Of a stretch of DNA of 64,000 bases, positions 45,157-61,411 are shown in pieces. This DNA comes from Escherichia phage VEcB, in the sequence record NC_052663.1. One strand, written 5' to 3'. How positions within the stretch are numbered: the first letter of the stretch is position 1; every line of letters begins with the position of its first letter. The notes beneath the pieces are model-generated. The model did not search any database. It worked only from the letters and a program-made list of their open reading frames with translations, and was not told the origin of the DNA. The position numbers and the translations under genes were made by a program.

Positions 45157-47316
45157 ATGAAACAGGCTATTTTTACTGTAACTCGAAATACGAGAGTAAA
45201 TGCCAGTTCATTCAGCTATAAGACCGTCGATGGAACGGCGGTCGCTGGTAGAGATTATGTAGCTAAACAGGGAACAGTAACGTTCCCTTCTGATGCAGAT
45301 TCTGCTACTGTGGTGGTTGATGTATATGAACGTCCGGCAAACTCTTTAGATCTTTATTTTACTCTTGAGATTACTAGCATAAGTCAAAATAACATGATGA
45401 TCAATGAAGAAATTCGTTGTGTTATTACGACTAATCAATCGAATACAACCCCGCTAACTTGGCCTGTTGTGAAGTCTAGAATGTTTGATCCTAAGTTTTG
45501 GACAATAGATTCTCAATCAACAGAAAGTTGTTCTATTATCTCTAATGGTGATTCTTTCACGGCAAGAATGGTTAATAGGACAGTGGCTGGTCTTGCTGGG
45601 ATTATTTGGTCAACTTACGATAAATATGATCACAAAGGATTAGGCTACCAAGAACATTCTGATTTAAGTAAAGAAAAACTTTGGTTTAAAATGGAACTTA
45701 GTCAAGGTGTTCCTGGGTTAAAAGAAGAAAAATTAATGCCATCCTTAACAGTGACACTGAAGGATGAAACAGTTCATTATGTATCTCTAAACTTTTATGC
45801 AGAAGAAGTTTCAGAGGACGGTAAAACAGCAATAATCAAATTAGATTTCTCAAATTTAAAATCTGGGCCAGAAAATGATATTGTTGTTGACACTACACAG
45901 ATAGATAACATGTTCTTCTCCTTGATCTCCGCAAGGTATCAAGAAATTGAAGATGTTATACCTGTAGACAATATGGATCTTTCCTTTAAGTTTACCATAC
46001 TAGAGCCTGATACTGGTTACAGTATGATGAATATGGGTAATTTAAATGTTCCGGCGCACACCATAAGAATGTGTACATCTTATGATGATATGTATAACCT
46101 AACCCCAGAGCGAGTTATTTCTAACACCTATAGATTAGGTTATAGAGATATGATTAACCATTATAATGGTATGTCACACTATTATCAATTTAGTTGGGAT
46201 GCTGGATCTAATAAATGGGCTTTGAATAGAACAGAATATTTAAACCCAGCAACAGAAGCCTGGTTTGATAATTTCCACGCTAATGCAAAAGCTATGGGCT
46301 ACACAGTAATGAACTCCTTAAGTTTTGAACTTATGAGTACAGTGTGTCCTGTAGAATGGGTACAACATACTTGGAATGATGATCTGGCTGCTACAGGTTA
46401 TGAGCCACCAAGTTATGTTTTATCTCCTTCAATTGATGAAGGGATGAATTATTTACAAGGTGTAATAAATAAGATAGCTTCTATATCCGCTACCAATGAT
46501 CTTCCTGTTATTATTCAGGTTGGTGAACCGTGGTGGTGGTATAACACAGCTACCAATCTCCCGTGTATTTATGATTATGCAACCAAAGTTGCATTTAATA
46601 ATGAAACTGGATTATATGCACAAGATGTTGGTACAGTTAAGAATTATAAAACTGGTACACCATATGATGAATATTATGCATTCCTATCTAAAACATTAGG
46701 ACTGCGTGTTGCTAAATTTGCAACAGATACTAGATTAGCATATCCTGGAGCAAAAGTTACATTGTTACCATTTGTGCCATCCATTTTGGGTAATGGTATG
46801 ATGGAGTTTGTTAACTTCCCTAAAGATTATTATATCCCAGAAAACTTTGACTTTTATTGTTCAGAATGTTATGATTGGTTGTTGGAAGGTAAGATGGAAA
46901 GATCTTTCGACGCTATCACAATACCTAATGAGCAACTAGGTTTTAGTTACAATAAGATACATTATCTTGCAGGGTTTGTTCCAGATGCAACTCTAGCACC
47001 ATTATATGGCTTTGATCCTGAATCAAACTATAGAACATATTTGTGGAAAATGATTATAGGTAATATTGTATTGAATGATCAGAAGTTTGTTGGTTTATAT
47101 CAATACATATGGGCTTATCCACAAATAATGCATGATTCAATAACTGTTCTTAATTCAAAATCCCAAGTTTTTTATATGGGTAATGTGCCTTTGAATTGCT
47201 ATTTGCAAGATATCACTCTTAAACAGGTAAATGTTACGATTGCTACTATAAGCGGAATTACATTAGCCACTAAATCTGGAGAAGATTTAGTAACAACACA
47301 AAAATTTTATATATAG
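45157..47316 (+). CDS. large tail structural protein
   Basis: 719 aa ORF. Confidence 0.5.
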   Translation: MKQAIFTVTRNTRVNASSFSYKTVDGTAVAGRDYVAKQGTVTFPSDADSATVVVDVYERPANSLDLYFTLEITSISQNNMMINEEIRCVITTNQSNTTPLTWPVVKSRMFDPKFWTIDSQSTESCSIISNGDSFTARMVNRTVAGLAGIIWSTYDKYDHKGLGYQEHSDLSKEKLWFKMELSQGVPGLKEEKLMPSLTVTLKDETVHYVSLNFYAEEVSEDGKTAIIKLDFSNLKSGPENDIVVDTTQIDNMFFSLISARYQEIEDVIPVDNMDLSFKFTILEPDTGYSMMNMGNLNVPAHTIRMCTSYDDMYNLTPERVISNTYRLGYRDMINHYNGMSHYYQFSWDAGSNKWALNRTEYLNPATEAWFDNFHANAKAMGYTVMNSLSFELMSTVCPVEWVQHTWNDDLAATGYEPPSYVLSPSIDEGMNYLQGVINKIASISATNDLPVIIQVGEPWWWYNTATNLPCIYDYATKVAFNNETGLYAQDVGTVKNYKTGTPYDEYYAFLSKTLGLRVAKFATDTRLAYPGAKVTLLPFVPSILGNGMMEFVNFPKDYYIPENFDFYCSECYDWLLEGKMERSFDAITIPNEQLGFSYNKIHYLAGFVPDATLAPLYGFDPESNYRTYLWKMIIGNIVLNDQKFVGLYQYIWAYPQIMHDSITVLNSKSQVFYMGNVPLNCYLQDITLKQVNVTIATISGITLATKSGEDLVTTQKFYI

Positions 47317-47324
47317 GAGTAAAA

Positions 47325-49574
47325 ATGTCAACTACAATTACTAATTTACCCGAAACATCAAAAGTTAATGGTTCTGATTACCTGGTTTTAGACCAACCTG
47401 ATAAGACTGTTAAAAGCACAGTTTCCAACTTTCTTACTGACACTGGGGTGGTTTTAGCCACCCAGCTAAAAGATGTTTCTGGAGCTACCAAGTATCCAGA
47501 ACTTCAGATTGCACGCTGGCGAGACGAGGGAGATATCAGAGGGTGGGGCACGGAAACGAACGGTGATGTTACCGAAGCAATCATTAAGGCGGTAGCGGCG
47601 ACAAGCGGCACTATCATTGTGCCTCCAGGCAATTATACGGCCACGCCAACCTTGGAGCAGGTTCCTTCTGTACTGAAATTGCTTTCACAAGCAGAGTTTC
47701 GAGGATCATTAGATATCAATCTCCCTGCGGGAACAGTTAACCTTTCTGAAAAAACGGTAATACGTTCGCAAAATGTCCATAACCTGTCTATCTCTGGGGT
47801 TAAATACTCGACATCCCTAACCGGTCTGGTAAGTGTTAGTGGCAGTCCAAAGGCATATCTGGTAACTATCTCTCTGGCAGATGCATCGAATGTTTCTGTC
47901 GGCGACGTGGTGATGATTCGCCACGACATCTCAGGAACTGGAGGGTATCACATTCACTGTGGTGGATGGGTTGTGGATGCGGTATCTGGTAATAATGTCA
48001 CCGTAAAAAATACCTGCCACCTTTCTGCATTCCCGACATCAACGATTACTAGTGGGTCGGTAGTCATTCTTAAAAGCATTCTGAAATACACTGGCTGTGA
48101 TGGTATTGTGGCAGCAGGCTCGGGATGCATTAAGACGATAAATGGTGTCGCTATTGTCGGTGATTATGATCTGGCAACAGGCTCTGGAACTATCGGGGCA
48201 CACGGCTTCTCCCTTACCACTCCAGACATAACCGTTGCTAGTCCAGACCCATCCAATGAAGTTTTTGATGCATCAGGCTGCATAGCTATTGGCCCTGATT
48301 TGGCGATTGTTGGGTTCGGTGAGCAGGGGTTTGTAGCGTCAGAGAGATCTGGTGTGGTTTCAAACTTTATATCTTCATGCTCTAACCGCAAGCGCGGTGT
48401 ATATTCTGAAGGCGCTCATATACGCGGTAAATTTATGCTTTGCTCAGGGAATGGTGAGGATGGGATTATTTCAGACATTGGTGGCGCAATTCAGGCTAAC
48501 GGTTCAGTTTGCTCAGGAAATGGACTTAACGGTTTTTGGTCATTCAACCACAGTCTCTTGAGTGCTCCTGGCGGGATTTCGTGTGGTAACTTCACGAATG
48601 GTGCGGAAGCGCGCGGACCAGGTGCATTAAATCTGCAAAATGGGAAGAGCTATTTAAACAGGCTAATTGGTGCAACCGCGTCAAATGGTGGGACGGTTAT
48701 TTTTACTGGCTCAACATCAACGCAGAATGGCACGGATGGACTGGTTGCAGTTTATGATGGTTTGATCTCTGCCGCCAATGCCAGCTCAGTGGGCAACGGA
48801 CGCTATGGGGTTGCCGTAACTCACGCAAAAATTGTGCTTACAGGCTCAGGAAGCGTAAGCGGAAATTCAACTGTAGATTTCATCGATCGCGGCGAGGGTA
48901 CTATAATTAAGCCGGATGGAACGATGCTGCCAAGAAAGGCTGCCCCGCAAAGCATCCTTTCTATTCGTAACGCCAATCTTTCCGGTGCTGATGTTACGGC
49001 ATCATCAATTGGTGATATTACCGTCTCGCAAAGAAACACATCCTCGGGTGCATTAACCCCCCTGTATGTATTCAAATCTGACGGAACCCAGCTTCCAGTC
49101 AATGACGCCACGCAGAACCTTGGCAGGGCAAGCAATCGCTACAATGTTGGTTTCTTCGCTGGCGGAACACAGTCAACTTCAGATGCCACACTTAAAGACC
49201 CTATCCGAGAGTTCAATCAGGCCGAACTCAATGCAGCAATGCGCATCTCGAAAATGTTTGGATTCTGGACGTGGCTTGATGATGACAATAAGCGTTTGCA
49301 TGCAGGGACTACGGTTCAAGCAGTGTTAGCTGTTCTGGAAGAGGAAGGTCTAGACTGGCGTAGCTATGGATTTATCTGTTTTGATGAGTGGGATGATGAA
49401 TATACCCCGGTAACCATTGAGGTAGATGGCGAAGTCGTTGAAACAGGGGAAATGAAATTAGTGCGTGAGGCTGGTTCTGTCTGGCAACTGCGCGATCAGG
49501 AATTTGACCGTTTCGTTATGCGTGGACTTTCTGAAAGGCTGAGTATTATAGAAAGTAAGCTGGATTTACTGTAA
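47325..49574 (+). CDS. tail fibre or tailspike with GC-rich central domain and C-terminal chaperone-like domain
   Basis: 749 aa; central region about 47500-49300 markedly GC-rich and Gly/Ser/Ala-rich; STSDATLKDPIREF near C-terminus. Confidence 0.55.
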   Translation: MSTTITNLPETSKVNGSDYLVLDQPDKTVKSTVSNFLTDTGVVLATQLKDVSGATKYPELQIARWRDEGDIRGWGTETNGDVTEAIIKAVAATSGTIIVPPGNYTATPTLEQVPSVLKLLSQAEFRGSLDINLPAGTVNLSEKTVIRSQNVHNLSISGVKYSTSLTGLVSVSGSPKAYLVTISLADASNVSVGDVVMIRHDISGTGGYHIHCGGWVVDAVSGNNVTVKNTCHLSAFPTSTITSGSVVILKSILKYTGCDGIVAAGSGCIKTINGVAIVGDYDLATGSGTIGAHGFSLTTPDITVASPDPSNEVFDASGCIAIGPDLAIVGFGEQGFVASERSGVVSNFISSCSNRKRGVYSEGAHIRGKFMLCSGNGEDGIISDIGGAIQANGSVCSGNGLNGFWSFNHSLLSAPGGISCGNFTNGAEARGPGALNLQNGKSYLNRLIGATASNGGTVIFTGSTSTQNGTDGLVAVYDGLISAANASSVGNGRYGVAVTHAKIVLTGSGSVSGNSTVDFIDRGEGTIIKPDGTMLPRKAAPQSILSIRNANLSGADVTASSIGDITVSQRNTSSGALTPLYVFKSDGTQLPVNDATQNLGRASNRYNVGFFAGGTQSTSDATLKDPIREFNQAELNAAMRISKMFGFWTWLDDDNKRLHAGTTVQAVLAVLEEEGLDWRSYGFICFDEWDDEYTPVTIEVDGEVVETGEMKLVREAGSVWQLRDQEFDRFVMRGLSERLSIIESKLDLL

Positions 49575-53571: not shown

Positions 53572-53913
53572 ATGGAGCTAACAGAAGTATGGGATATCGC
53601 TAAAGAGGCGATTATCCCTCTTATTGGCGTAATCTGGGTGGTCTTCAAACAGAAGATAGATGATATGGCAAGTGATTTGGATAAAATGGAAGACAAATAC
53701 CGCGAACTAGAAAAGAAGTTGGTGTTTGTTGAATCCACTTATGCTACCAAAGCAGAACTTGCTCAAATGCTTAACCAGATCAACTCTACATTAATGGCAA
53801 ATAATACTGCCTTAGAACAGAAGATTGAAAAAATAATGGATTTAAAAAATGCTCCTGTTCAATTAATGCTAGAGGAGATTACAAAGCGCACACAAAGTAA
53901 GGACAAAAATTAA
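53572..53913 (+). CDS. hypothetical coiled-coil protein
   Basis: 113 aa ORF. Confidence 0.4.
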   Translation: MELTEVWDIAKEAIIPLIGVIWVVFKQKIDDMASDLDKMEDKYRELEKKLVFVESTYATKAELAQMLNQINSTLMANNTALEQKIEKIMDLKNAPVQLMLEEITKRTQSKDKN

Positions 53914-56327
53914 TGGCGAATTTTCCAACATATCCTGCTACGACACTAGAACAAGGTGTTGATCTGGTTATATTCTCGTCTAACCAGATGCATGATGTTA
54001 TTAATGGAGATGCTACAGCAACTGTAGAAACCGAAACAGGTTTAATACCTACACTGCGTAAAGCACTTGTTGATAACTTCTTCTTTAAGAGTCCTGTTGC
54101 TTGGTCAGCAGGATCAACTGAAACTGTATTTAACCAGTTACGTTATTTTGAAAACGGTATCTTGAGTGGGTACTATTATGCCCCATCTGCCACTACTGCG
54201 AACCCTGTACCTATGCAGGGCACACCTGTAGGAGACAGTAACTGGACTCTGTACGCTCTTAAAACTGAACAGTTAGCTTCAGATGTGTATCCTTGGTATT
54301 TTAAAGGTGCTACAGGATATGAAACAGAAATCAGTCCTCCTTATATCTTTGATAATGCTATTGTCACCATTAACGGTGTAATTCAGATTCAAGGTGAAGC
54401 ATTTACTATCAGAGATAGTAAAATTATTCTGGCAGAACCATTAGGTTTAGATCCGTCTACTGGTCTACCTAACAAATTGTTTGCTTTTATTGGTAAAACA
54501 ACAGCCTCTACTTCTTACGTAGAGAAAAACCTTTTGTCATCTACCACTGGTGCAGCAATGGTTGGTCTTCCATCTGGAGGCAACCTGTTACAAGCTCAAT
54601 ACTTTGTAACGCCTGAGCAGTTTGGTGCAATTGGTGATGGAGTTACCGATGATACTCAAGCAATTTTAAAAACTATTACTTTCGCTAACACGAATAACAT
54701 TCAAGTACGTGCAGATAAGAATTATAGATTCACAAGCTCAATTGCTATGTCTGGTATTCGTTGGTATGGTGGTACATTCACTGGTAACGGTGGAACAATG
54801 ATTTCTACTGTGTCCTGTTGGATGGAAAACGTTCGCTTTGAAAAATGTTATGTTAAGATGTTAGGTGGTGATTGCCGATTCTATCGTAATATCTTCTCCA
54901 ACGCAACATCTACAGCAGCATTCTTAATGCAAGCAATGACAAGTGAAGGTACGTTGGACTTCAGTTACAACGAAATGTATGGTTGTAAATATGCGATCCT
55001 GCAACAAGGTACTGGAGAAGTAATGACCTATGGGCGTTACTCTAACAACTATATTCACGATATCAAAGGTGATGCTATTGAACTTAACGTAGTTCAAAAA
55101 CACTACACTGAAGGTTTGATTATCGAGAATAACCACATTGCTAACGTAGATGCTTCTGGACAAGGGGCAAACTGGGGTATTGGTATTGGTGTAGCAGGTA
55201 GTGGCCCATATGGTGTTGATGTTCCTGATTCACAATATGTACGTAATTTCAGTATCGTTGGGAATAGGGTTTACAATTGCCGTCAATGTTTACACGTTGA
55301 AATGGGTAAAAACTTCACAATACGTGATAATGAAGTTTATCCTAACACAGCAGTTTCAACAGGTACAGGTTTAACTACTTGTGGTGTTGCATTATACGGA
55401 TGCCAAGATTTTGAAGTTGATGGTTTAACTGGTTATCTGCTCAATGATCCTTCTGTTTCAACACGTATGGTCTTTATTGACTGGGGTGTTAACAGTGGAA
55501 GATATGCGGGGCCACCAATTAACTTTACAATTAAGAATTTGGATATTCCAGAATCTTCAATTGAGATTGCAACATCTGGATCAGATGCCTGGGAAAACTC
55601 TACAATTGTTAGTAATATCAATTGTAATGTTTTTAAATGGCGTGGGCTACCATCTAGCTCTACCTTTAATAATATTCGTTGCCGTAGTATTGACTTTATT
55701 GGTCAACACGGAAGCGGAGAAGGAAGTGGTGGCGGTTTCTATACTCGCAGCCAATTCACGTATATGAAGTGGGTAGGATGTACAGCACTTAGCGGAGATG
55801 AAACAACAGTTTCTTTTGCTAAAATCTACACTGATCGTTGCGATCAGGTTGGAAATAACTTTGGTGTTCCAACTGCTGTTGATGGTACAGGTCATCGTGG
55901 GCCAGTTTTAACTACTATTTCTGAACAATATTTTACAACTTATGATGAATTCCCAGGTGGGCGTGAATTCCCTACTGGAACAGTTATTCATTGTGCAAGC
56001 GGTAAAAAACATGTTGTTACAGTAGGTGGTGCTTTCTTTAGTGCCAACGAGAAAATAAAAGCAACTGTTACAGGTCAAACCTATCTACAGTCTAATGCTT
56101 TAAACTGGGCTAGTAATGGCTACGCTAAAGCAGCAGGTACTAAAATTGTTATTCCAGGTGCAGGTGCAAATGGCGGCGATCTTGTGACAACTATAGCACG
56201 TGCTACATATGTGACAAATAGTTTGTACACAATAGATATTGCAGATCCAATTGTAACACCTACAGCAGAGAATACACAAATCAAAGCTCTGAACCCTGTT
56301 ACTTTTGTTACTGTCAATAATGCTTAA
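53913..56327 (+). CDS. tailspike-like protein with predicted beta-helix
   Basis: 804 aa; repetitive Gly/Asn-rich segments consistent with pectate-lyase-like fold. Confidence 0.45.
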   Translation: MANFPTYPATTLEQGVDLVIFSSNQMHDVINGDATATVETETGLIPTLRKALVDNFFFKSPVAWSAGSTETVFNQLRYFENGILSGYYYAPSATTANPVPMQGTPVGDSNWTLYALKTEQLASDVYPWYFKGATGYETEISPPYIFDNAIVTINGVIQIQGEAFTIRDSKIILAEPLGLDPSTGLPNKLFAFIGKTTASTSYVEKNLLSSTTGAAMVGLPSGGNLLQAQYFVTPEQFGAIGDGVTDDTQAILKTITFANTNNIQVRADKNYRFTSSIAMSGIRWYGGTFTGNGGTMISTVSCWMENVRFEKCYVKMLGGDCRFYRNIFSNATSTAAFLMQAMTSEGTLDFSYNEMYGCKYAILQQGTGEVMTYGRYSNNYIHDIKGDAIELNVVQKHYTEGLIIENNHIANVDASGQGANWGIGIGVAGSGPYGVDVPDSQYVRNFSIVGNRVYNCRQCLHVEMGKNFTIRDNEVYPNTAVSTGTGLTTCGVALYGCQDFEVDGLTGYLLNDPSVSTRMVFIDWGVNSGRYAGPPINFTIKNLDIPESSIEIATSGSDAWENSTIVSNINCNVFKWRGLPSSSTFNNIRCRSIDFIGQHGSGEGSGGGFYTRSQFTYMKWVGCTALSGDETTVSFAKIYTDRCDQVGNNFGVPTAVDGTGHRGPVLTTISEQYFTTYDEFPGGREFPTGTVIHCASGKKHVVTVGGAFFSANEKIKATVTGQTYLQSNALNWASNGYAKAAGTKIVIPGAGANGGDLVTTIARATYVTNSLYTIDIADPIVTPTAENTQIKALNPVTFVTVNNA

Positions 56328-56368: not shown

Positions 56369-58330
56369 GTGATTTTAACACGTCCAAATAGTGCCATTGC
56401 AGACATGGTAGAGTCTCGCTATAGAAAGCGTAGAAGTTTTGCAAGTGGTTTTACCTTAAGAGATGCTCGTGAAGCATTGCTCTTTGAAACTGACGGTAAC
56501 TACTATCAGTGGAAAGGTTCTCTACCTAAAGTTGTACCTGCTAACTCTACTCCTACATCTACTGGAGGGATTTCAGATACAGCTTGGAAAAATGTGGGTA
56601 ATGCAGATGACATTGCTCAAATAGAATCAGAATTAGATGCTATTGAAGCTGAAATTGAAGATCTTAGAGAATCCATTCCAGAAGCTGGTAAATCAGCTTA
56701 CCAGATTGCCGTAGACAATGGTTTCCAAGGTGCTGAGACAGACTGGTTGGCTTCTTTAAAAGGTGATCCAGGTGCTCCATTAAAGCTGCTAGGGACGCTA
56801 TCTAATACCAACCAATTACCTACAACCGGAAACAATGCAGGAGATGCATGGATTGTAGGAGAAAATATGTATGCTTGGGATGGTACTGCTTGGAGAAAAG
56901 TAAACTCACAGGGGCCAGAAGGTAAATCAGCTTATCAAGTTTGGCTTGCAGCAGGAAACCAAGGTACAGAACTAGATTATCTTGCTTCAATTAAAGGTGA
57001 TAAAGGGGAACCTGGCCCAGAGGGGCCACAAGGTGTACCAGGTAACAATGCTAATGGTTTTGATTACCAAGGTGCAGCTAATTCCGTTTCAGATCTTCCT
57101 TCTGCATCTCCTGGAAACACATCTCAAGCATGGAGTATTGGTACATATCTATACGTGTCAAACGGTGTAGAATGGATCAATATGGGCGCTATAGTGGGGC
57201 CAAAAGGAGATAAAGGCGACAAAGGAGATAAGGGTAACACTGGTGATTCAGCTTATCAAGTCTGGTTAAACGCTGGTAACGTTGGTACTATTGACGAATA
57301 TATTGCCTCTCTGAAAGGAGAAAAAGGTGATAAGGGAGACAAGGGTGATCAAGGTGAGCAGGGTATACAAGGCTTGACGGGGCCAACTGGTGCAGGGTTG
57401 ACCATTATTGATATTCTGACTGACACTTCTGAACTACCACAAACTGGAGAAGATGGTGATGGTTATCTGATCAATAATGAACTTTGGGTTTGGTTGCAAG
57501 GAGCCACACAGTGGACAAATGTTGGTCGTTTAGCTGGTACTCCAATCACTGCAAAAGGACACGTTGCGTCTGCAAGTGCACTTCCTCCTACATCCAATTA
57601 CGGTGATGCTTATCTAACGGAAGACACAGGTCATCTTTACATTTACACCTATGATGAACAAACTCAAACTGCTGAATATGTAGATATGGGTAGTTTGAAA
57701 GGTGATAAGGGTGAGAAAGGTGACGCTGGTACTAACGGTACGGATGGTGCAACTTGGATTGTTAAAACAACAGATCCAATCTCTAGTGATGGTAAACAAG
57801 GTGATTATGCCTTTAATATCTCCACTGGCGAGGTGTTCTTAAAAACATCTGCAACTGTCTGGACTTCTCAAGGTACACTACCTAGCATCACAGATGCACC
57901 TAGTGACGGTAAGATCTATGCTCGTAAAGATGGAGCATGGGAAGAACTAACTAGTTCTGTAGATGGTCAAGATATAGTTCCAACAAAAGTAACAGCTAAT
58001 TTTATAGAGGTTACAGCATACACCAACAACTCTGTTATAGGTGACTGGACACCTCCAGGAACACATAACATGAATGTGTTGAATCTTACTGGTAACGCTA
58101 CTATAAAAGCATGGCCTGGTGTCGAAGATAGCACAAAACCTAAACCATTCTCTGCAATAGTTTATCTTATCCAAGATGCCACTGGAGGTCGTACTGTTAC
58201 TTTAGATCCATCTTACAAAGTAATTGGTTCTAGTGATATTAATACAGATCCTAACGGAGTAACAATACTACAACTAACATATTGTGGTGTTGGCAATTAC
58301 GTGGATGCTATTGTTGCTAAACGCACATAA
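56369..58330 (+). CDS. tail fibre protein with collagen-like Gly-X-Y repeats
   Basis: 653 aa; repeats KGDKGEPGPEGPQGVPG and GDKGDKGDKGNTGD; GTG start with AAGGAG RBS. Confidence 0.55.
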   Translation: MILTRPNSAIADMVESRYRKRRSFASGFTLRDAREALLFETDGNYYQWKGSLPKVVPANSTPTSTGGISDTAWKNVGNADDIAQIESELDAIEAEIEDLRESIPEAGKSAYQIAVDNGFQGAETDWLASLKGDPGAPLKLLGTLSNTNQLPTTGNNAGDAWIVGENMYAWDGTAWRKVNSQGPEGKSAYQVWLAAGNQGTELDYLASIKGDKGEPGPEGPQGVPGNNANGFDYQGAANSVSDLPSASPGNTSQAWSIGTYLYVSNGVEWINMGAIVGPKGDKGDKGDKGNTGDSAYQVWLNAGNVGTIDEYIASLKGEKGDKGDKGDQGEQGIQGLTGPTGAGLTIIDILTDTSELPQTGEDGDGYLINNELWVWLQGATQWTNVGRLAGTPITAKGHVASASALPPTSNYGDAYLTEDTGHLYIYTYDEQTQTAEYVDMGSLKGDKGEKGDAGTNGTDGATWIVKTTDPISSDGKQGDYAFNISTGEVFLKTSATVWTSQGTLPSITDAPSDGKIYARKDGAWEELTSSVDGQDIVPTKVTANFIEVTAYTNNSVIGDWTPPGTHNMNVLNLTGNATIKAWPGVEDSTKPKPFSAIVYLIQDATGGRTVTLDPSYKVIGSSDINTDPNGVTILQLTYCGVGNYVDAIVAKRT

Positions 58331-58333
58331 TCA

Positions 58334-58358
58334 AAGCCCCTTCGGGGGCTTATTATTT
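58334..58358 (+). terminator. rho-independent terminator
   Basis: AGCCCC-TTCG-GGGGCT followed by TATTATTT. Confidence 0.55.
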
Positions 58359-58369
58359 AAGGAGATTAA

Positions 58370-60256
58370 ATGTATCCTATTCCTTTATTTATGTCAACAA
58401 CATCAGCTTCAGTAGTAACAGCTACATCTATAACCACTTCCTCTATTGGTATTGCAATAGTTGGTAGTAAAAAGCAACTGACATACACAGTTTCACCGGA
58501 AGATGGTGCGTTATTTGATATAGCTTTTTCATCTTCAGATAATACCAAAATGGTTATAGATAATAGTGGTATGATGGAGTTTGTTGCCGAAGGTGGTTTT
58601 GATGCAATAATGACAGCTAAAAATAATTTAGGTGCTGTCTTAACTGATCAATCTGGTGGTTATGCTTCAGAATTAAGCGTGTACACTGAAAGTCTATCCG
58701 CTATGGATGTAGGCACTACTCAACAGTTGGTTGCTACAATCAGTCCAGAAGGTGCTAAAGACCTTCCAGATATGGTAATTACATACACCACAACAGATCC
58801 AGAAGTAGCTACTGTAAGCCCTACAGGATTAATAACTGCTCTTAAAGATGGCAATTGCCGTATAGGTTGTACTGCAACGTATCAAGGAACAGTTGTGGCC
58901 TCTGATAGTTCTTATTTAGGTGTTAATGCTATTCCTGTTATTTCTAATGTAACAGCCGTGGCAAACAGTTATGGAGACGTTCGTGTTGCTTGGGATGTAA
59001 CTGATCCACTAGACGGTGATACTTATACTGTAGAAGTATTAGATTTAAGTGATAATAGTGTTCAGTGGACTACAACAACCACGAATACTTACGCTTACTT
59101 TGATATCTCTGACTCTATTCCTCTTTATGGGTTTGCTCCAACATACCTTAAAATTAGCGTTAAGAGCACCAAAGCAGCAGCCGTTATCTTTAATAACTCA
59201 ATAGCTACAGATGATTCGTTCATTAAAGAAGTTATTGTCTTTGCTGGACAAGATAACGTAAATGCACACTTTACAGAATTATCTGGTGCAAATAAAGCAG
59301 TAATGAGTAGCACAACAACCCGTAATGCATATGCTACGCAACGTGGTTTAGCAAATGCTGAAGTTCTTCCGTTAAATACAGCTTCTGGATCATCAGCAGC
59401 AGATAAATATGCTGACGATAAAGCTGGAACAGGTACACCAGACAACTACTGGTATGATCTGGATAACACAGCAGATGGGCCATGCTTAACTAACTTTATC
59501 ACTAAAGTCACACCTTATGCAAGTAAGGTTAAAGCAATTATTTGGGGACAAGGTGAAAATGATGCTGTATCAGCATCTTCGACTGTTGCAGGTAGGTACA
59601 GTAACACTACACGTTACCATGATGCTACGATAGCTATCTTTGATAAGATGCGTACAATAGTTCCTGCTTCTCAAGCAAAAATTGTTTGGCAGATCCTAGG
59701 ACGTTCTTATTTATATGGTGTAGAAGTTAATGGTGTGGATTGGCAGAAGTACAGAAATGTACAAAGAACCATCTCTACAGCACGTGATGATGTTATCATT
59801 GGTTCTTGGGTAGATGGTGCTGAACGTTACAGTGGTTATGTTTATGAAGAAGGTATTGATGGTCGTATCCATTATATTTCTTCTGTATATCAAACAGCAG
59901 CTACAAAACTTGCTAAATCAGCAGCAGACGGTACAGATTTAACATCAACACCACCTGTTTGGGTTGATATGTCTGTTCCAACAGGAGGAGCCGCTGTAAG
60001 ACAAGCTAACCAAGATGCAATTATTTCTTGGGAACCAGCAGGATATACCAAACATTACTTCCGAAATGTAAACGTCCTCACAGCAGCAATTCTTACAGAA
60101 CAAACTCTTGATACTAACACTTACACATTTACTTATGCAGATCAGGTTGAACAATACGGGTTTGCAGCAGGTACAGCAGTGTTTGATGTTGCACACTATG
60201 ATGCTGATAATGACGTGTTATCACCTCTTGTCAGATTTACAGTCAATGTTACATAA
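58370..60256 (+). CDS. tail protein with Ig-like domains and C-terminal SGNH/SASA-like carbohydrate esterase domain
   Basis: 628 aa; VIVFAGQDNVNAH (GQSN-like) and AIIWGQGENDA (QGES-D-like) motifs. Confidence 0.5.
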   Translation: MYPIPLFMSTTSASVVTATSITTSSIGIAIVGSKKQLTYTVSPEDGALFDIAFSSSDNTKMVIDNSGMMEFVAEGGFDAIMTAKNNLGAVLTDQSGGYASELSVYTESLSAMDVGTTQQLVATISPEGAKDLPDMVITYTTTDPEVATVSPTGLITALKDGNCRIGCTATYQGTVVASDSSYLGVNAIPVISNVTAVANSYGDVRVAWDVTDPLDGDTYTVEVLDLSDNSVQWTTTTTNTYAYFDISDSIPLYGFAPTYLKISVKSTKAAAVIFNNSIATDDSFIKEVIVFAGQDNVNAHFTELSGANKAVMSSTTTRNAYATQRGLANAEVLPLNTASGSSAADKYADDKAGTGTPDNYWYDLDNTADGPCLTNFITKVTPYASKVKAIIWGQGENDAVSASSTVAGRYSNTTRYHDATIAIFDKMRTIVPASQAKIVWQILGRSYLYGVEVNGVDWQKYRNVQRTISTARDDVIIGSWVDGAERYSGYVYEEGIDGRIHYISSVYQTAATKLAKSAADGTDLTSTPPVWVDMSVPTGGAAVRQANQDAIISWEPAGYTKHYFRNVNVLTAAILTEQTLDTNTYTFTYADQVEQYGFAAGTAVFDVAHYDADNDVLSPLVRFTVNVT

Positions 60257-60290
60257 ACAAAAAGGAGCCAATAGGCTCCTTTTCTTTTAT
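60257..60290. terminator. bidirectional terminator between convergent genes
   Basis: AAAAA-GGAGCC-AATA-GGCTCC-TTTTCTTTT. Confidence 0.65.
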
Positions 60291-60291
60291 C

Positions 60292-60723
60292 TTAATCAGT
60301 GAAAATTACGCTCACATCTTCTTTAGAGAAGAGTTTATGATCTTCACCTTTTGTCTCAAGAGTTTCATACAGGTTAAGAAGTTCTGAAACATCTTTCTCT
60401 ACTAGTTTCTTCAATGTTGCAATTTTCTGTTTGCGATTTTTAATACGTTCAGCTACAACCTTACGTTGGTATCCGGCAGTACGATAACCTGAGAAAGTTA
60501 CACCAGTGAGACTTGCAGTTACAGGATCGTAATGACGTTCAATCTGAAATTTATTAAAAGGTACAGCGTCATCACGAATAATCTTACCGCCATTACTTAC
60601 TTGACGAAGACCAGTAACTTGTTCTAGTCGTGCCATAGAAATCTTTGGAGACAGACCAGAGTCCAGGTTCATACCGTTGTTAATCAGTGCTTTCAGGGTG
60701 ATTTTGCTGTTCAGTGTACTCAT
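60292..60723 (-). CDS. hypothetical protein
   Basis: 143 aa; GGAGGA RBS. Confidence 0.45.
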   Translation of the reverse strand: MSTLNSKITLKALINNGMNLDSGLSPKISMARLEQVTGLRQVSNGGKIIRDDAVPFNKFQIERHYDPVTASLTGVTFSGYRTAGYQRKVVAERIKNRKQKIATLKKLVEKDVSELLNLYETLETKGEDHKLFSKEDVSVIFTD

Positions 60724-61411
60724 TTAGTCGTTCCTCCGCTTGCTTAAAAATATTTACATCGGCTTCACAGCCTAAGTATTCTCTACCTGTTAAAAGTGCC
60801 GCAACTTGTGTTGTTGCACTCCCAGAGAAGAAGTCTAAGACTACATCTCCTTCGTTGGTGTGTATATTAATAAGGTCACAAAACAAAGTCAAGTGTTTTT
60901 GTGTTGGATGAAAACGATCTGCTCCTTGATAGATAGGATACTCAAACACACCCTTATGGTAGGAAGCATTGAAGGTTGGCTTCGAACCTTTAACACAAAC
61001 AATAGCCATCTCTTTAGCGTTACTAAGATAGTTAACACCACTGTTGATGGGTACAGGGTTTGTTTTAATCCATTCGATAGTACGGAACATACGAAAACCA
61101 AGCGGTTCAAGGATTTCACGTAGCTCCTGGATCTTCCAGATATCATACCAAACTATGCAAGTACCACCTTTTCTAAGCACCCTGTAGGCTTCTTTGAATA
61201 CTTCTTTAAAGTAAGGAATATCTACAACATCCCAATCACCAAAGTTGTAAGATACACGGAATCTATCCGTATCTTTTCCAGTAGGCTCTCCAGATTGAAA
61301 ATTTGTGTCACGAGAAATAGCATATGGTGGGTCAGTAAGAATCAAATCTACACTATTGCTTTCGAGGGTTTGCAGGTAGTTTAATGCGGTGTTGTTTACA
61401 AATTCGCTCAT
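60680..61411 (-). CDS. DNA methyltransferase (amino-MTase, N6-adenine or N4-cytosine)
   Basis: 243 aa; catalytic DPPY motif near N-terminus and AdoMet-binding FFSGSATT near C-terminus. Confidence 0.75.
   Translation of the reverse strand: MSEFVNNTALNYLQTLESNSVDLILTDPPYAISRDTNFQSGEPTGKDTDRFRVSYNFGDWDVVDIPYFKEVFKEAYRVLRKGGTCIVWYDIWKIQELREILEPLGFRMFRTIEWIKTNPVPINSGVNYLSNAKEMAIVCVKGSKPTFNASYHKGVFEYPIYQGADRFHPTQKHLTLFCDLINIHTNEGDVVLDFFSGSATTQVAALLTGREYLGCEADVNIFKQAEERLNEYTEQQNHPESTD

Follow-up and report, generated by a model that had tools for sequence, protein, structure and literature searches.

The gene at 58370..60256 on the plus strand of the analysed DNA (the window, a stretch of 64,000 nt from Escherichia phage VEcB, NC_052663.1) raises the question of whether a tail protein that resembles a carbohydrate esterase is really an enzyme. 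A preliminary description, made from the sequence alone, had proposed a tail protein with Ig-like regions and a C-terminal SGNH/SASA-like domain, and had considered a virion-borne esterase that deacetylates O-antigen or capsule. The open reading frame is exactly as proposed in coordinates and strand, having an ATG start, 628 codons and a TAA stop. A ribosome-binding site (AAGGAG, 58360..58365, +) is located 4 nt before the ATG. The counterpart in phage phi92 is annotated as gp152 plus gp153, being split there by a deletion (see below), and a matching AGGAG is annotated as ribosome-binding site for gp152 in the phi92 record. The protein is assigned to PHROG 32204 ("tail protein"). It represents the short one (628 aa) of two alleles in circulation, the long one having 939 aa.

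The gene is the last of the plus-strand tail-fibre cluster. It is preceded by a colanidase tailspike gene (53913..56327, +) and, immediately upstream, by the gene for a collagen-like fibre that carries Tail_spike_N (56369..58330, +). A GC-rich hairpin with a T-rich tract (58334..58351, +; 7-pair stem with 5 GC pairs) is found between the fibre gene and the ORF and is terminator-like or attenuator-like. Directly 3' of the stop codon, a bidirectional intrinsic-terminator hairpin (60260..60283) precedes two converging minus-strand genes, coding for a hypothetical protein (60292..60723, 143 aa) and a DNA methyltransferase (60680..61411, 243 aa), which overlap by 44 nt. The GC skew changes its sign near 16 kb and 60 kb, matching the switches in gene orientation. 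In another part of the tail region (47325..49574, +), a 749-aa tailspike-like protein is encoded that ends in an intramolecular chaperone domain of the Peptidase_S74 type (E 4.6e-08); for an endosialidase catalytic domain, Pfam gave no match in this protein. Presumably, this is the slot where phi92 has its endosialidase gp143, and the specificity of VEcB at this slot may differ from that of the phi92 enzyme.

Over the 5 kb surrounding the gene, VEcB shares 99.2% identity with Escherichia phage outra and 94-99% with about 50 further Justusliebigvirus myoviruses (phi92-like, ~146 kb). A match to gp65 of the podovirus N4 (see below) prompted us to consider an N4-like podovirus origin. This was ruled out, as the window is 99% identical to the ~146-kb Justusliebigvirus myoviruses. 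A search for related loci with the 628-aa protein as query returned two Justusliebigvirus loci. Records named "Campylobacter phage" (A150, C3, A110a, A145 and B15) and "Serratia phage KKP_3264" share 98-99% identity with Justusliebigvirus from E. coli; these are likely to have mislabelled hosts or to represent contaminating coliphages.

The protein is composed of several domains. The N-terminal ~30 aa (58370..58459, +; MYPIPLF...) have no assigned fold (pLDDT <50 in AlphaFold2), and MYPIP is kept in a 41%-identical homologue from Avunavirus. This segment is a candidate virion-attachment peptide. An Ig-like region follows (aa ~31-187, 58460..58930, +), which is matched by Pfam Big_2 in two stretches (E 2.3e-12), so that the Ig-like regions had been correctly placed ahead of the esterase motifs. 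It shows ~60% identity to tail proteins of Phapecoctavirus and Vequintavirus phages, which are devoid of the remaining domains: the matched records align at aa 35-220 only, and none matches the SGNH+FN3 part at E<=1e-5. AlphaFold2 models the Big_2 region poorly because the alignment is shallow. Since aa 1-187 are below pLDDT 50 in the full-length model, how many Ig domains the N-terminal part has, and how they pack, is taken from Pfam and PHROG matches only. The next domain is a beta-sandwich (FN3/Ig-like; aa ~190-275, 58937..59194, +; AlphaFold2 strands at 190-277, pLDDT ~90), which is approximately what phi92 has lost by deletion (gene nt ~591-808). It leads into the SGNH/SASA-fold esterase-like domain (aa ~280-530, 59207..59959, +), assigned from its fold, from SASA homology at the family level and from homology to N4 gp65. 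This domain is not C-terminal, as had been thought, because it is followed by an FN3 domain (aa ~535-628, 59972..60253, +), an allele-specific cassette for which Foldseek reports many FN3 matches to the last ~95 residues.

The SGNH assignment required a family-level analysis. With aa 270-628 as query, exhaustive HMMER searching of 1.84 billion cluster representatives yielded no more than 75 related clusters, superseding a word-indexed homologue search that had returned 3 proteins only. The AlphaFold2 model computed from an alignment of 30 of these 75 clusters (mean pLDDT 95.9, pTM 0.91) predicts the three-layer alpha/beta/alpha SGNH fold for aa ~280-530. When this model was compared to the PDB by Foldseek, N4 gp65 was the top match (E 8.6e-26, TMq 0.79) and SGNH enzymes ranked next; the family profile reaches the SGNH structures 2apj and 1zmb with E ~1e-3. 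The Pfam SASA profile (PF03629) scores 15.1 bits on the whole protein (aa 374-437, covering profile positions 106-169 only) and 17.0 bits on the isolated domain, both below the gathering score of 24.8; NCBIfam has no match for the 628-aa protein. Among 30 family members, however, 20 match SASA at E<=0.01 (best E 2.5e-13) and several are well past the gathering score (e.g., 48.5, 48.6 and 43.9 bits). Several high-scoring members match up to the end of the profile, which is the block V region. Given the fold matches, the family profile and the SASA matches of its relatives, the domain is a true SASA-type SGNH homologue, even though the protein alone fails the Pfam threshold. The proposed SGNH/SASA-like domain is thus confirmed, with the reservation that the HMM check succeeds for the relatives and not for the protein itself.

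The catalytic residues were inspected after aligning 82 homologous copies of the domain; the consensus blocks are GQSN, G(G/S)S, W.QGE.D and His. The two motifs noticed at the outset, AGQDN (aa 292-296, 59243-59257) and WGQGENDA, occupy the GQSN and W.QGE.D consensus columns, and the blocks are in the same order as in the E. coli K-12 enzyme NanS, so that the resemblance is not due to chance. NanS has VAGQSNA with Ser19, which we take to be the published nucleophile, GGS at 121, WMQGEFD at 177 and SSHFS with His301. The VEcB protein has FAGQDNV at the start and RIHY (His501) at the end of this series. Between these, hhalign pairs G340-S341 and W392-GQGEND-398 with GGSA and WMQGEFD from NanS. 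According to the alignment and the NanS comparison, the oxyanion-hole Gly of block II (Gly340-Ser341, 59387..59392, +), block III (W392-G-Q-G-E396-N-D398-A, aa 392-399, 59543..59566, +) and the catalytic His of block V (His501, 59870..59872, +; His in 65 of 79 copies in this column) are retained. The nearest Asp to His501 is at position -4 (D497) rather than -3; this is not decisive because NanS also lacks an Asp at -3.

Block I is the exception. The column had been correctly recognized, but it was overlooked that the nucleophilic Ser of GQSN is replaced by Asp295 (codon GAT, 59252..59254, +), while 60 of the 77 copies with a residue at this position have Ser. In the AlphaFold2 model, Asp295 (model residue 26) is at the junction of strand 1 (18-24) and helix 1 (26-32), which is the nucleophile site in SGNH enzymes. 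Asp is found at this position in all orthologues fetched, from short and long alleles alike, and GAT is at least two substitutions away from any Ser codon. The protein therefore does not carry an intact Ser-His(-Asp) set on a tail appendage, although Asn296, Gly340, Glu396, Asp398 and His501 are all present. The strict canonical catalytic set occurs in only 37 of the 74 complete family copies, and the losses cluster in two-copy gp65-like proteins. Judged from this alignment, loss of catalytic residues appears to be recurrent in the SGNH+FN3 family.

Because the nucleophilic Ser is lost while the rest of the pocket is kept, non-catalytic binding is the most likely function of the domain. We consider the protein to be an accessory side-fibre protein, the esterase-derived domain of which would serve as a non-catalytic glycan- or receptor-binding module (probability about 55%). 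There is a precedent in CE2 esterases, whose SGNH active-site cleft serves to bind carbohydrates non-catalytically (PDB 2w9x, title). Of the earlier proposal of a virion-borne deacetylating esterase, the esterase ancestry and the pocket residues are upheld and the nucleophile is not. A point against a binding-only role is that His501, Glu396, Asp398, Gly340 and Asn296 appear to be more than a pure scaffold would need; the same residues are also what an active enzyme would keep.

The protein might then still be a working carbohydrate esterase of a non-canonical type, in which Asp295 serves as the nucleophile or, together with His501, as the general base. It would act on O-acetylated O-antigen, colanic acid, polysialic acid or NGR, unmasking the receptor or walking along it. 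We regard this as unlikely. The defining Ser is absent, and the sister lineage (Avunavirus, 41-49% identical, with GGDN) has in addition exchanged the oxyanion-hole Gly of block II for Ile and the Gln of block III for Leu, which is as expected when catalysis is no longer selected. The closest relatives that have been studied are binding proteins. Orthologues are labelled as "hypothetical", "tail protein", "lateral tail fiber protein" or "non-contractile tail sheath", and as "tail carbohydrate esterase" in KMB37 (WQN06861) and ALITA; the esterase labels in public records appear to stem from automated fold matching and not from assays. A more radical version, in which the Asp295-His pair acts on a host envelope glycan by a new SGNH-fold chemistry, serving as nucleophile plus base or activating water, is highly improbable. 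Asp can serve as a nucleophile in other hydrolase folds, and purifying selection has kept the Asp-His pair in two phage subfamilies; however, an SGNH-fold enzyme that uses Asp as its nucleophile is not known to us. A paper on a "water-mediated triad" in CE20 was considered as a precedent for a non-Ser nucleophile and was rejected, since it concerns the acid member of the triad and not the Ser. Should Asp-His chemistry be true, the domain would be the first hydrolase of SGNH/SASA fold to work without a nucleophilic Ser.

Known esterases with this fold differ from the VEcB domain. The SASA/sialate O-acetylesterase SGNH hydrolases (PF03629; 1zmb, 2apj and NanS, 3pt5) have GQSN where VEcB has GQDN, and they are free enzymes, whereas the VEcB domain is part of a phage fibre, where it is flanked by Ig-like and FN3 domains. 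Esterase spikes of the G7C gp63.1 type are trimeric and belong to more distant SGNH subfamilies, while the VEcB protein lacks the Ser and has Ig/FN3 beads. For G7C gp63.1 (PDB 4qnl), Pectobacterium phage Possum and Acinetobacter phage Aristophanes, an intact Ser-His-Asp triad and demonstrated deacetylase activity are described in the literature (the G7C study, Prokhorov 2017, is cited in PMC8594841).

The closest solved relative is N4 gp65 (PDB 9lc0, 9yf4; PHROG 15324, E 2.1e-40), which is the best match by sequence (phmmer 2.1e-25, profile 9.1e-131) as well as by structure. Both are tail proteins from E. coli phages. The SGNH-like+FN3 module of VEcB aligns to residues 429-592 and 719-1067 of gp65, with an identity of only ~22%. 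The 1382 aa of N4 gp65 comprise an N-terminal NCTSP_N/TIM-barrel part, two SGNH-like copies and four FN3 domains. Together with gp64, it sheathes the tail of a podovirus, while VEcB has a contractile tail and its protein has one SGNH copy and N-terminal Big_2 domains. Copy 1 of gp65 has kept the Ser, and its alignment stops short of block V; copy 2 has Gln and Tyr at the positions of Ser and His. The gp65-like representatives have no His in the block V column. N4 gp65 was described as a 10-domain receptor-binding sheath subunit that is paired with gp64, and the text of that structure paper neither mentions SGNH nor terms gp65 an esterase (PMC13434306). In a gp65 homologue from phiAxp-3, aa 795-1195 are reported to suffice and to be indispensable for receptor binding (PMC5862860); by collinearity, this region probably overlaps gp65 copy 2 and the subsequent FN3 domains. 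Goslar "gp65" was dismissed as a relative, having only the name in common.

The other part of the N4 sheath domain set is encoded by a separate tail gene (45157..47316, +; 719 aa), with Calx-beta, NCTSP_N and NCTSP TIM-barrel domains (Pfam; TIM barrel E 8.5e-82). Pfam finds NCTSP_N and the TIM barrel (PF23844, PF23845) in this product and not in the 628-aa protein. In alignments, aa 105-344 of this product pair with the N-terminal part of N4 gp65 and aa 358-608 with N4 gp64. Thus, the N4 two-chain heterodimer is partly a single chain in VEcB, with the SGNH/FN3 part of gp65 being encoded 11 kb away. The 45157..47316 product may be a partner of the 628-aa protein. A sheath role of the latter around a short non-contractile tail is implausible because the host phage is a contractile-tailed Justusliebigvirus of ~146 kb. 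The family profile (positions 180-245) weakly matches residues 13-78 of N4 gp64 (E 0.0016), which could reflect a shared sub-structure or chance.

In another reading, the protein would correspond, in a myovirus, to the receptor-binding module of N4 gp65 and would recognize NGR or its exporter NfrA together with the 45157..47316 product. This would explain why phi92-like phages share the wecB/nfrB dependence of N4. VEcB encodes both halves of the N4 sheath domain set, and the Justusliebigvirus phages Bas60-62 need wecB/nfrB and NGR as N4 does (PMC8669472, PMC11990801). Eryne, which has the short allele, is reported to use NGR only poorly (PMC11984140), while Bas60-62 carry the long allele. This correlation between allele and NGR use was not accepted as evidence: it compares one phage to three, Eryne differs from Bas60-62 in other genes as well, and the short-allele phages outra and muut were isolated on K-12 MG1655. 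Vequintavirinae phages are also reported to be NGR-dependent (PMC8669472), and since the matched Vequintavirus records lack the SGNH+FN3 part, as do those from Phapecoctavirus, the module is not needed for this phenotype. The authors of the BASEL collection noted homology to gp64 only, which they tied to wecB/NGR dependence, crediting a gp64-like deacetylase domain (PMC8594841, PMC8669472); their "glycan deacetylase" homology was checked as a possible reference to the 628-aa protein, but it concerns N4 gp64 and a different gene. With the identity to gp65 being only ~22%, an NGR- or NfrA-specific role seems quite unlikely to us, slightly more so than a non-canonical esterase.

Comparison of orthologues shows that the gene is modular. 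The long-allele orthologues (939 aa; e.g., bas60_0037 from Bas60 PaulScherrer and WQN06861 from KMB37) are near-identical over aa 1-530, including GQDN, and have 95% nt identity to the VEcB gene over the first 1857 nt. They continue with a divergent FN3 cassette and an extra distal domain of 311 aa (NCBIfam NF048003, "phage head spike fiber domain"; C-terminus of PHROG 11922), whereas the VEcB allele ends right after FN3. Between short and long alleles, dS is ~0.03-0.1 upstream and rises to >1 after ~aa 530. This indicates a recombination boundary at the SGNH/FN3 junction, as read from the alignment, and the distal part (59960..60256) looks like the product of host-range cassette exchange. The SGNH domain has a dN/dS of 0.07-0.24, which indicates purifying selection, with small substitution counts.

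Two phages have a damaged copy of the gene. In phi92 (NC_023693; 3001-4663 of the compared locus), a deletion of ~220 bp (nt ~591-808) causes the frameshift that separates gp152 from gp153. In Salmonella phage UAB_1 (3001-3778 of the compared locus), ~1.1 kb are gone (nt 569-1680), including the entire SGNH domain. Based on these losses, the gene is dispensable. Two structure papers report cryo-EM of phi92, but these cannot show the 628-aa protein because the phi92 copy is broken. The losses, with viability kept, and the missing catalytic Ser also fit a structural or decorative tail protein without a specific ligand, in which the esterase-like domain is a fossil spacer or folding unit that is being lost. 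We consider this improbable, as it is hard to reconcile with the low dN/dS of the SGNH domain, with the intact gene being kept in more than 50 sequenced phages and with the retained pocket residues. Furthermore, the distal cassette is actively exchanged between alleles, which is typical of host-range determinants.

We thus favor a function as a binding module and propose the following scenario. The gene product would be a side-fibre protein (tail appendage) of a phi92-like myovirus, accessory and dispensable, its location on the virion being suggested by gene context and homology. It is built as beads on a string, from the putative attachment peptide via the Big_2 Ig-like domains, the beta-sandwich and the SGNH/SASA-fold domain to FN3. 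The SGNH domain descends from sialate/carbohydrate O-acetylesterases and has lost the nucleophilic Ser (now Asp295) while keeping the remaining pocket. The former active-site cleft has probably turned into a non-catalytic binding site, the ligand of which would be a glycan on the host surface, perhaps in acetylated form, or some other envelope receptor. Such a module would add one specificity to the multivalent adsorption apparatus of the phage, in a role akin to that of the homologous SGNH-like+FN3 modules in the N4 receptor-binding sheath protein gp65.

It is well known that SGNH esterase domains occur on phage receptor-binding proteins, and orthologues are publicly labelled as esterases. 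The replacement of the nucleophile, the identity of the module with that of gp65 and the split of the N4 sheath domain set over two genes appear not to have been stated in the searchable literature. The public "esterase" label is unsupported by the sequence because the nucleophile is absent. Phi92-like phages owe a very broad host range to their many tail appendages, which is why they are studied and have been put forward for therapy; this appendage is missing from their structural model phage phi92, where the copy is broken. If the protein is a glycan-binding pseudo-esterase, it would be an example of phages recycling enzyme folds into receptor-binding modules, of which N4 gp65 looks like a further case, and it would offer a swappable cassette for host-range engineering. 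The distribution of the N4 sheath domains (gp64 and gp65) over two myovirus genes may provide a handle on the NGR-pathway dependence that N4 and phi92-like phages have in common.
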